Positions 1-41,008 of a DNA stretch of 41,008 nucleotides are shown piece by piece; position 1 is the stretch's first letter; the number at the start of each line of letters is the position of its first letter. The stretch is taken from IMG/VR virus record IMGVR_UViG_2541047933_000001; one strand, written 5' to 3'. The notes beneath the pieces are model-generated. The model did no database searches. It saw only the letters and a program-made list of their open reading frames with translations, and was not told where the DNA came from. The translations under genes were made by a program, and so were the position numbers. This DNA comes from a virus (taxonomy: Duplodnaviria; Heunggongvirae; Uroviricota; Caudoviricetes).

Positions 1-98
1 GAGTCTTGAGTCTTGAGTCTTGAGTCTTGAGTCTTGAGTCTTGAGTCTTGAGTCTTGAGTCTTGAGTCTTGAGTCTTGAGTCTTGAGTCTTGAGTCTT
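1..98 (-). repeat. Tandem heptanucleotide array, 14 copies of GAGTCTT on + strand (AAGACTC on - strand); array reaches the window edge so true copy number is unknown
   Basis: Direct reading: positions 1-98 are exactly 14 x 7 nt; on the minus strand the array sits immediately after ATG-TT, i.e. inside a coding 5' end. Confidence 0.95.
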
Positions 99-103
99 AA
101 CAT
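1..103 (-). CDS. neuO: 5' end of phase-variable polysialic acid O-acetyltransferase gene (partial, continues beyond window start)
   Basis: Minus-strand ATG at 103..101 preceded by AGGA RBS, followed at once by the AAGACTC heptad array; this is the known arrangement of neuO in K1 prophage CUS-3, next to an endosialidase tailspike. Identity is from recalled literature; no O-acetyltransferase residues are visible here. Confidence 0.6.
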   Translation of the reverse strand, partial: MLRLKTQDSRLKTQDSRLKTQDSRLKTQDSRLKT

Positions 104-119
104 ATTAGTATCCTACGTT

Positions 120-147
120 ATTTTACCACTAGTTACTTTTCTTGTCA
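120..147 (-). promoter_or_regulatory. Putative sigma70 promoter for the heptad-repeat gene (-35 TTGTCA-like at 142-147, -10 TAAAAT at 120-125, minus strand)
   Basis: Hexamer match with 16-nt spacer in the AT-rich 104-256 intergenic region; sequence inspection only. Confidence 0.2.
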
Positions 148-256
148 TTAAAAAGCATTTAAATTTTTATATTTAATTTCGTTGACGTCAATGTTTTTTG
201 CCAATGTACTTACTTCTTTATGTGATCAGTTCATATTTTTGACGCCAACGAAACAT

Positions 257-5089
<4,833 letters not shown>

Positions 5090-5161
5090 TTTAAAAGAAC
5101 GCGCCATAGTGAAGAGTTGCGAAGGCATCGATACGATCACATTGGCTGTAATGTCTGTCAT
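5090..5161 (-). pseudogene. Tailspike gene, first 24 codons (MTDITANVIVSMPSQLFTMARSFK), cut off from the rest of the gene by IS100
   Basis: Minus-strand ATG at 5161; removing the IS and one TSD copy joins this in frame to ...[10 protein letters not shown] at 3130; matches P22 gp9 N-terminus MTDITANVVVS...[14 protein letters not shown]. Confidence 0.85.
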
Positions 5162-5217
5162 TTAATTTGCTCCAGATACAAGGAATCGCCGAAGCATGGC
5201 TACGGTGAATTTTGGGC

Positions 5218-5243
5218 ATAAAAAAACCCAGCCGAAGCTGGGT
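5218..5243 (-). terminator. Rho-independent terminator between ant and the tailspike gene
   Basis: Minus-strand hairpin ACCCAGCTTCGGCTGGGT followed by a U7 run. Confidence 0.7.
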
Positions 5244-5261
5244 CGTTGCGTTGGTTATCTA

Positions 5262-6185
5262 TCAGTAGTTATGTACTGAAGGAGGTAATTCTTTATTCTT
5301 AAGTCTCATCCATGCGGAAAGATTCGTTGGTCCGTCTGGCTCATTAATATCAACATCTCGTGTATGGTTGATTAAAACATCTCTCGCCATTCCGATAACA
5401 TACGAGAATTCATGACCGTAGTCGTAGCATCTGCCGGAATAGTTCGATTGAATTTGTTTTAGCGCCTGATACAGTTCGCGGAATAATGCCTGTGAGCGGT
5501 TGGCATAATCCCATAGCCATACAAGGCTGTTTACTTCTTTTGCAGAAAGCTCGTTGGTTTTCTTCTCTTGTTTGCCAATGAACTCACCTTCAAGTGGAAC
5601 TCGAGCTGCAAGTGATAGTGCTTCGGTAAACTGCTCCTCACTGATTTCTTTGTACGAACATCCAAAATGGGATTTCAGTGACGACCACATGGTGATCATC
5701 GCCTTAGCCTGTTTTTCTTTTGGCAGAGACTGACCGCGACTCATGACGAGTTGTTTAATGGCTTCCTGCTGTTCAGTGGTGATTTTACCCTGCAACGCCT
5801 TTTTAGCTTTGCGTGGGTTAACTACATGGCCTTTAGTCCAGTACTCGTAGAGCACATCGTCACACTCTTCCTGATACTGGATTACCTTGTCGCGGATTTC
5901 AGGGCGGACTTTGTTAGGACTGATGCTGTTCAACCAAGCTGCCAATTTTCGTAAAGCCATACAAATCATGGCTTGCACCCCACCGGCAGAAGGTATGGTG
6001 ATTTCCACCATACCATTCGAGAATCGTTGAGAAATCTTCTTATGTTGAGATTTCCAGTCTAGCCCCATTCCCTCAACGATAGGTTTCATTGGGGTATACG
6101 GTTCGCCGTTGTGATTGACAACATAAAGCTCTGCGCCGTGGAATGGTACATTGATAGTAGATACTGCTGTTGCTATACTTTTCAT
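5262..6185 (-). CDS. ant: Antirepressor Ant (immI region)
   Basis: 307-aa ORF directly downstream of arc and upstream of the tailspike gene, the P22 immI arrangement; domain assignment is from position and size rather than a recalled alignment. Confidence 0.65.
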   Translation of the reverse strand: MKSIATAVSTINVPFHGAELYVVNHNGEPYTPMKPIVEGMGLDWKSQHKKISQRFSNGMVEITIPSAGGVQAMICMALRKLAAWLNSISPNKVRPEIRDKVIQYQEECDDVLYEYWTKGHVVNPRKAKKALQGKITTEQQEAIKQLVMSRGQSLPKEKQAKAMITMWSSLKSHFGCSYKEISEEQFTEALSLAARVPLEGEFIGKQEKKTNELSAKEVNSLVWLWDYANRSQALFRELYQALKQIQSNYSGRCYDYGHEFSYVIGMARDVLINHTRDVDINEPDGPTNLSAWMRLKNKELPPSVHNY

Positions 6186-6248
6186 GTCGTTAATTCCTAT
6201 GCGTGGTTTTACGATACCGAAGCCCTGACTGTTCCCGCAGTTGGGGCT

Positions 6249-6452
6249 TCAACTTTCTGCTCTATCAGTTATATCTTTCCCTTCGTATACTTCACCTATA
6301 TTGCTAATGCTGGCAGAACATCCAAGATGCTTGTATCTTATGATGTCCAACACGCAGTCACTACACAGCATCCGACCTGTTTCTTTAGAGTAAATGTATG
6401 TTTGATCAGCGTCTGATTCGCTAATGCCGCAGAAACAACATTCTTTACTCAT
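6249..6452 (-). CDS. Small Cys-rich (zinc-ribbon-like) hypothetical protein between arc and ant
   Basis: 67-aa ORF with paired CxxC-like motifs (CCFCG ... CSDC); start overlaps arc stop (ATGA). Confidence 0.45.
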   Translation of the reverse strand: MSKECCFCGISESDADQTYIYSKETGRMLCSDCVLDIIRYKHLGCSASISNIGEVYEGKDITDRAES

Positions 6453-6589
6453 ACCATCACCCCCTCTCTCTTCAAGCTGTCCAGCACCCGTTTAATTACT
6501 TCTGCGCTAAACGATCGACACTCTTCCTTTGCTTTCTCTTCAAGGATTTTTTCTAACTTCTCTGGCATACGCAGTGTTTTTACCTTCAT
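6449..6589 (-). CDS. arc: Arc-like ribbon-helix-helix repressor
   Basis: 46-aa product MKVKTLRMPEKLEKILEEKAKEECRSFSAEVIKRV... follows the P22 Arc pattern (R.P.E......A.E.GRS.N.E); GGAGG RBS upstream. Confidence 0.7.
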   Translation of the reverse strand: MKVKTLRMPEKLEKILEEKAKEECRSFSAEVIKRVLDSLKREGVMV

Positions 6590-6975: not shown

Positions 6976-7224
6976 ATGGCTAGAGATGATCCGCACTTTA
7001 ACTTCCGTATGCCTTTGGAAGTAAGAGAAAAATTGAAATTAAGAGCCGAGGCTAACGGAAGGTCAATGAACTCTGAGTTATTACAAATCGTTCAGGATGC
7101 GCTATCAAAACCATCACCGATTGCAGGTTACCGTGACGAAGCAGAACGTATGGCTGATCAGCAAGCAGAAATTGTTAAGAAGATGGTGTTTGAAACCCTG
7201 AAAAAAATGTACGAGACCAGATAG
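6976..7224 (+). CDS. mnt: Mnt repressor (near-identical to P22 Mnt)
   Basis: 82-aa product MARDDPHFNFRMPLEVREKLKLRAEANGRSMNSELLQIVQDAL... matches recalled P22 Mnt almost residue for residue. Confidence 0.9.
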   Translation: MARDDPHFNFRMPLEVREKLKLRAEANGRSMNSELLQIVQDALSKPSPIAGYRDEAERMADQQAEIVKKMVFETLKKMYETR

Positions 7225-39881: not shown

Positions 39882-39897
39882 TTGCAGGTTCGATTCC
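39882..39897 (+). other. 16-nt tRNA T-arm-like fragment (TTGCAGGTTCGATTCC)
   Basis: Matches the T-stem/T-loop consensus GGTTCGATTCC with flanking stem bases; no complete tRNA is present. Confidence 0.4.
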
Positions 39898-39916: not shown

Positions 39917-40117
39917 ATGCAACACGAACTACAACCTGATTCACTGGTTGATTTGAAATTCATCATGGCCGATACTGGCTTCGGTAAAACCTTCATCTAT
40001 GACCGGATTAAGTCCGGCGACCTGCCAAAAGCCAAAGTTATCCACGGGCGAGCAAGATGGTTATATCGTGACCATTGTGAATTCAAAAATAAGCTCTTAA
40101 GCCGCGCCAATGGGTAA
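39917..40117 (+). CDS. torI: Excisionase / recombination directionality factor, TorI (AlpA-family) type
   Basis: 66-aa product MQHELQPDSLVDLKFIMADTGFGKTFIYDRIKSGDLPKAKVIHGRARWLYRDHCEFKNKLLSRANG matches recalled TorI of prophage KplE1; sits at the prophage end next to the att core and host gene. Confidence 0.8.
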   Translation: MQHELQPDSLVDLKFIMADTGFGKTFIYDRIKSGDLPKAKVIHGRARWLYRDHCEFKNKLLSRANG

Positions 40118-40190: not shown

Positions 40191-40204
40191 CTGCAGGGAC
40201 ACCA
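40191..40204 (+). other. Putative prophage attachment-site core resembling a tRNA-Arg 3' end (CTGCAGGGACACCA)
   Basis: Sequence resembles the acceptor/T-stem 3' end of argW as recalled; lies between torI and the host LysR-family gene where phage-type content ends. Confidence 0.5.
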
Positions 40205-40303: not shown

Positions 40304-41008
40304 TTATGAAGTGGTTTTTACCTGTTCTCTTAACCAAGTAATAAATGCCTCAATTTTTGGCCACTGCCTGCCCGGTAATGTAGTGATGTAATAATGCTGA
40401 TGGCATTTCACCGTCATATCGCCAAACGGCGCGACGAGCTCACCACTGGCAAGCCTTTTTTGTACCAGACGTTTCCTTCCCATCGCCACCCCAATATGAT
40501 TCATCGCGGCGATAACGGCTAAATCAGAGCGATCAAAGCCAATTCCCGAAGATGTCGGCAAATTAACCGCATAATGTTGCGCCCAACTATGCCATTCATC
40601 CGTACCGGAGTCGTTGCTCCATGCCTGTCTGTCATGGAGCAACGTACAGTGACGCAGGTTAATTACCGTGTTGGTTAAATCATGTCTATGAGCGTACTCC
40701 GGGCTGCAAACTGGCAGGATTTCTTCATCCATCAGAAAGTGATGAGCCAATTGCGCTGACGGCGCATCATCAAAGTAGATCGCCAAATCGATTCCGGCAC
40801 GTTGCAAATTGACATTGTCATTACCAGTGAGCACGGTGAGCGAAATAGACGGATATCGGCGTGTAAAGTCACCTAATGCGGGCACCAACCAGCATTGGGC
40901 GATAGAGGGCCGGGAATACAACGTTAACGTTCCCGATAACTCCTGATTTTTGATATCCAGAATTTCCTGATTCAGGGTATCCAGCGACGATTTTAGCGCC
41001 CAATAAAC
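40304..41008 (-). CDS. dsdC: LysR-family transcriptional regulator, substrate-binding domain (probably dsdC); 5' end lies beyond the window
   Basis: C-terminal LysR effector-domain-like sequence; in E. coli K-12, dsdC flanks the argW-integrated KplE1 prophage next to torI; gene symbol inferred from synteny only. Confidence 0.5.
   Translation of the reverse strand, partial: VYWALKSSLDTLNQEILDIKNQELSGTLTLYSRPSIAQCWLVPALGDFTRRYPSISLTVLTGNDNVNLQRAGIDLAIYFDDAPSAQLAHHFLMDEEILPVCSPEYAHRHDLTNTVINLRHCTLLHDRQAWSNDSGTDEWHSWAQHYAVNLPTSSGIGFDRSDLAVIAAMNHIGVAMGRKRLVQKRLASGELVAPFGDMTVKCHQHYYITTLPGRQWPKIEAFITWLREQVKTTS

Follow-up and report, generated by a model that had tools for sequence, protein, structure and literature searches.

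In Neisseria, the opa genes carry CTCTT pentamers in the region coding for the leader peptide, and in Haemophilus, the repeat unit of lic1 is CAAT. The principle common to these genes and to neuO is that a gene for surface modification carries, near its 5' end, a repeat with a unit that is not a multiple of three nucleotides long, so that slippage toggles the reading frame. Unlike opa and lic1, neuO has a unit of another length and sequence, it is carried by a prophage and hence is mobile, and its in-frame repeats encode a functional peptide extension that tunes activity. For prophage CUS-3, the poly-psi contingency locus of neuO is said to have been treated by Deszo et al. (PNAS, 2005; pmid 15809431) and King et al. 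(J Bacteriol, 2007; pmid 17601779).

The published definition of this locus comprises the AAGACTC unit, its position 2 nt past the start codon, the rule of three, the RLKTQDS heptads and a range of 2-93 copies (PMC3046976). The enzyme OatWY of Neisseria meningitidis W/Y (PDB 2WLC) is, like NeuO, a left-handed beta-helix hexapeptide acyltransferase acting on a sialic-acid capsule, and the active-site residues of the two proteins are conserved (PMC3046976). However, OatWY has neither the heptanucleotide array nor the poly-psi extension, and its match to NeuO spans the catalytic body alone.

The stretch of DNA analysed here, called the window, is 41,008 nucleotides long (IMG/VR record IMGVR_UViG_2541047933_000001). 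The repeat tract at its beginning is almost certainly the 5' end of neuO, a gene that is phase-variable by slipped repeats and is carried as cargo by CUS-3, a P22-like prophage of E. coli K1. The locus is the known neuO/CUS-3 locus itself and not a variant of it, and as such it has already been described (PMC3046976, PMC13001214).

The heptanucleotide array and the identity of the gene

The following features were located at the start of the window:

Window 1-98, minus strand: poly-psi repeat of 14 perfect AAGACTC units, the 5' part of a longer array with a scaffold gap at the edge
Window 99-103, minus strand: neuO start codon ATG (103-101) and the following TT (100-99), which sets the phase of the array
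Window 111-114, minus strand: Shine-Dalgarno-like AGGA, 7 nt 5' of the ATG, a putative ribosome-binding site
Window 104-256, minus strand: intergenic stretch that separates the stop codon of the tailspike gene from the start of neuO

On the minus strand, the order was found to be AGGATACTAAT-ATG-TT-(AAGACTC)14, reaching position 1 of the window. On the plus strand, positions 1-98 were read by Tandem Repeats Finder as 14.0 copies of GAGTCTT with a period of 7, 100% matches and a score of 196. A probe of three units matched the window 12 times, compared with no matches in 100 dinucleotide-preserving shuffles. Thus, the sequence and the repeat finder both confirmed what the earlier note had described from the letters alone, namely a minus-strand ATG with a ribosome-binding site, followed by TT and at least 14 perfect units running to the window edge. 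The array consists of AAGACTC units and starts two nucleotides past the start codon, as the published definition requires (PMC3046976), and translation from the ATG gives M-L-(RLKTQDS)n. The ATG and the TT were identical in 15 other neuO copies, and the AGGA was kept in all the copies examined. The annotation of this tract in the CUS-3 record CP000711.1 reads 'neuO: poly(psi) domain; contains 19 copies of heptanucleotide repeat AAGACTC'.

A promoter and terminator scan of window positions 1-400 yielded consensus matches only. Two candidate sigma-70-like hexamer pairs were found 5' of neuO, at 191-163 (TTGACG-17-AAAAAT) and at 148-120 (ATGACA-17-TAAAAT). The second candidate was not relied on because transcription directed by its -10 hexamer would begin within the ribosome-binding site.

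The body of neuO lies outside the window; it was read in 15 other copies and in the scaffold from which the window comes. This scaffold (GCA_000461155.1, KE702293.1; locus at about 425-437 kb) was identified through an exact match to the tailspike ORF, which is cut short by an insertion sequence, and it contained 14 units, 10 N and a further 95 nt of the array (13.6 units), followed by GTTTTCCGTTGATG... and the neuO body. The 10-N gap occupied positions 7161-7170 of the source-scaffold locus, exactly at the window edge and inside the neuO array. Extension upstream of position 1, which the earlier note had proposed, therefore revealed the expected acetyltransferase ORF, and it gave the repeat number of this strain only as a lower bound of at least 27 resolved units, with the gap lying inside the array. 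The array does run to the window edge; what lies at this edge is a break in the assembly within the repeat tract, and the on/off state cannot be read from it. In the source scaffold, the gene caller split neuO into a 34-aa ORF and a 246-aa ORF, the latter being the intact, Hexapep-containing neuO body after the gap.

The in-frame allele of strain ATCC 11775 (286 aa) matched the Pfam family PF00132 Hexapep with 40.4 bits, against a gathering cut-off of 27, and its residues 45-286 were 100% identical to PDB 3JQY, 'Polysialic acid O-acetyltransferase'. The second-best PDB match was OatWY (E = 6e-31, over NeuO residues 95-278), and galactoside, maltose and streptogramin acetyltransferases were matched as well. 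The ORF downstream of the array is thus homologous to acetyltransferases. The gene had been called neuO-like; the acetyltransferase assignment held, and judged by its sequence, the gene is neuO itself, the prophage-carried polysialic acid O-acetyltransferase gene.

Arrays of the same type were sought elsewhere by scanning one genome per species for exact (AAGACTC)x4. More than 120 loci were present among the matches listed, in unrelated phyla including Acidobacteriota, Planctomycetota and Bacteroidota and in a Methylococcales sponge symbiont. Among these matches, a single genome often had many such loci, which lay within mixed arrays of similar heptamers, for example AGGACTC, AAGGCTC and AAGACTA. 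The listed arrays were short (mostly 4-6 units) and degenerate, with unrelated flanks. They were mostly intergenic (42% inside an ORF, compared with 82% of random positions) and were over-represented in the 100 nt upstream of an ORF start (23% compared with 5%), with no enrichment in the first 60 nt of ORFs among the matches listed. Being short, degenerate, mostly intergenic and differently flanked, the listed arrays of other phyla were rejected as relatives of neuO.

Copy number and reading frame

The repeat number was compared among 15 neuO copies, i.e., the CUS-3 record and 14 complete chromosomes. The numbers found were 15, 18, 19, 20 (three times), 21, 24, 26, 27, 30, 34, 36, 39 and 53, which amounts to 13 distinct values between strains, ranging from 15 to 53. 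Over the 150 nt upstream (window 104-253) and 660 nt downstream, 810 nt in all, there were no substitutions among the 15 copies. A tract that starts 2 nt past the ATG and has 13 lengths between identical flanks is neither untranslated nor invariant. The copy number in the CUS-3 reference was 19, compared with at least 27 in the present strain, and copy number was the only difference within the locus.

The earlier note had reasoned that with a 7-nt unit any change in copy number shifts the frame, and this was borne out in all 15 copies: the ORF from the ATG exceeded 250 aa if and only if the repeat number was a multiple of three. In this sample, which leans to 'on' alleles since matches with an annotated acyltransferase were favoured, the number was divisible by three in 8 copies, with ORFs of 251-307 aa, and not divisible by three in 7 copies, with ORFs of 49-143 aa. 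The out-of-frame products ended in ...RLVFR* when one unit remained after division by three and in ...RFPLMIMGQVMFLYVEIL* when two remained. The in-frame alleles spanned 15-39 units, that is, 5-13 heptads. The variation of tract length from strain to strain and the dependence of the frame on copy number both come from the present data.

Slippage within a clone is known from the literature and not from the present data. Fragment analysis of strain MS7163 demonstrated 21 repeats in 93% of cells, 20 in 1.9% and 22 in 5.4% (PMC13001214); the count of 21 obtained here for MS7163 is the same as the published value.

Viral contigs had 8-32 units in the same context. A second neuO allele lineage was noticed among IMG/VR contigs, in which the array has 8-13 units, is preceded by ATG-TC in place of ATG-TT and is followed by GGATCA in place of GGGTCA. 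In one IMG/VR contig (L141), a 12-nt deletion (TACTAATATGTT) removes the neuO start codon, which would make this a locked-off allele.

The CUS-3 prophage and its disrupted tailspike gene

The window was colinear throughout with CUS-3 (CP000711.1; host E. coli RS218), with an identity of 99.8-99.99%. Its first 1500 positions, which cover the 14 units together with the neuO start region and the 3' portion of the tailspike gene, were 100% identical to this record. Positions 1-3153 corresponded to CP000711.1 2270-5422, and positions 5079-39897 corresponded to 5389-40207, up to the attR core. The window therefore contains the CUS-3 prophage from the middle of neuO to attR, followed by approximately 1.1 kb of host DNA with torI and the 3' part of dsdC. 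As in the CUS-3 reference, neuO is placed between the integrase gene intS and the endosialidase tailspike gene, the prophage is integrated at argW, and NeuO is identical to PDB 3JQY; the AAGACTC unit, its distance of 2 nt from the ATG and the flanks are also the same. The gene order tailspike, neuO, intS, tRNA-Arg, yfdC was found in three loci, including those of ATCC 11775 and the source scaffold. The region from neuO to the tailspike gene was present in 194 of 5,426 complete E. coli genomes and was chromosomal in every case.

The genes and elements next to neuO were as follows:

Window 257-3160, minus strand: endosialidase tailspike gene siaK1 of CUS-3, whose first ~24 codons are split off by an insertion sequence
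Window 3126-5090: IS21-family element of 1,953-1,954 bp with a target duplication of 5-6 bp, ACGGC[T]
Window 3217-4239: IstA, 340 aa
Window 4236-5018: IstB, 260 aa

The remainder of siaK1 formed a 967-aa ORF with a GTG start inside the end of the insertion sequence, and its product contained the Pfam families Head_binding, End_N_terminal, End_beta_propel, End_tail_spike and Peptidase_S74. The adjacent endosialidase tailspike had been cited in support of the neuO reading. The neighbour is indeed siaK1 of CUS-3; in this copy, in contrast to the CUS-3 reference, it is disrupted by an insertion, the insertion point corresponding to CUS-3 position 5395-5400, ~24 codons into the gene. When window positions 1-6500 were compared with the 5,426 complete E. 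coli genomes, no record covered more than 70% of these positions because none had the IS21-family element at this site. Additional IS3 and IS1 elements were seen under the matches of this region to complete E. coli genomes.

The tailspike gene was also damaged in other strains. It was disrupted by ISEc12 at CUS-3 ~5444 in ATCC 11775, by IS3-family elements at ~3941 in O18 and at ~4529 in FY26, and by an internal stop in GN05064. These disruptions were independent events at different sites in different strains, and neuO was intact and often in frame. The losses of siaK1 could reflect either ordinary prophage decay or selection against a capsule-degrading tailspike. It may tentatively be suggested, although we consider it rather doubtful, that siaK1 is recurrently inactivated in CUS-3 lysogens and that selection domesticates the prophage, with neuO and its switch being kept and the tailspike and lytic competence being lost.

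The interruption of siaK1 so close to its start might also mean that the whole locus in this strain is a decaying relic, in which the prophage is defective, neuO is perhaps permanently off and the array no longer acts as a switch; the L141 contig, which lacks the neuO ATG, indicates that locked-off alleles exist. This explanation is very improbable. The present copy shares its ATG, its ribosome-binding site and the 150 nt upstream with CUS-3 without any difference, and the neuO body past the gap is an intact ORF. Moreover, expression of neuO is independent of the tailspike gene, and neuO is in frame despite a disrupted tailspike gene in ATCC 11775 (30 units), O18 (18 units) and FY26 (27 units). 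The preferred reading is that of a neuO contingency locus in a CUS-3 prophage.

At the right end of the prophage, the following features were found:

Window 39882-39897: 16-bp 'attR core' of the CUS-3 record
Window 39917-40117: torI, identical to PDB 1Z4H
Window 40191-40204: second argW 3'-end fragment (CTGCAGGGACACCA, one G short)
Window 40304-41008, minus strand: 3' part of dsdC, encoding the D-serine regulator, running off the window end

It was observed that torI lies 20 nt beyond the attR core of the CUS-3 record and is followed by the argW 3'-end fragment. TorI is the excisionase cognate to IntS (PMC2951348). Because this excisionase belongs to the IntS module, and the module has been reported to be conserved in CUS-3, the prophage may functionally extend on its right side past the attR that has been annotated. 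In a 2022 paper, DsdC was reported to be a transcriptional regulator of neuO (PMC9659370); dsdC directly flanks the prophage that carries this reported target.

Switching of K1 capsule O-acetylation

In the mechanism published for neuO, slipped-strand mispairing during replication would lead to the gain or loss of 7-nt units. Since seven leaves a remainder of one when divided by three, each unit gained or lost moves the downstream frame by one. A copy number divisible by three would give full-length NeuO, with three units encoding one RLKTQDS heptad in the 'poly-psi' extension at the N-terminus, and with any other copy number, translation would stop shortly past the array. The outcome would be that O-acetylation of the K1 capsule is switched on and off stochastically, in a way that is both heritable and reversible. 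This is the mechanism that the earlier note had recognised, and all the features that can be checked in the sequence agree with the published locus. For the activity of the enzyme and for the phenotypes, we rely on the literature and not on the present data; O-acetylated sialic acid has been detected by mass spectrometry (PMC13001214).

According to the literature, the catalytic efficiency of NeuO rises linearly as heptads increase in number (PMC3046976), which would add a graded layer on top of the switch. It could be supposed from this, and from the span of 5-13 heptads in the in-frame alleles, that the tract is chiefly a rheostat, by which the length of the RLKTQDS extension sets how active NeuO is, and not an on/off switch. 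We regard this as highly implausible. In a 2026 study of 64 complete genomes, which had 3-53 repeats, 65.6% were off (PMC13001214), and among the 15 copies compared here, 7 were out of frame and would thus give no enzyme. In addition, the commonest slippage event is a single-unit step (PMC3046976), and each such step alters the frame. The occurrence of out-of-frame alleles together with frame-changing single steps indicates that tuning adds to the switch and does not replace it.

As the window terminates in the repeat, at a point where the source scaffold contains a gap of N, the repeat might be taken for an artefact of sequencing or assembly at the end of a contig. This is scarcely credible, since the same array with the same flanks occurs in 15 finished copies, including the CUS-3 reference, and the gap shows only that short reads failed to span the array.

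The scaffold gap reflects the failure of short reads to bridge an array of ~200 bp or more. Assemblies made from short reads are interrupted within the repeat, and draft genomes are hence no reliable basis for calling neuO on or off. When a finished genome carries an off-phase allele, the only product that PGAP annotates is a 111-aa 'acyltransferase' fragment (WP_011478229.1). Automated annotation of off-phase neuO alleles is thus misleading, and phase calls based on it are unreliable.

Since 2005, the neuO locus has been the subject of genetic, biochemical and structural characterisation, and its recognition in this window brings no new biology. The locus is biologically important: the neuO switch has been reported to bear on K1 phage resistance, neutrophil killing, serum sensitivity and immune recognition (PMC13001214, PMC9659370, PMC8653822).
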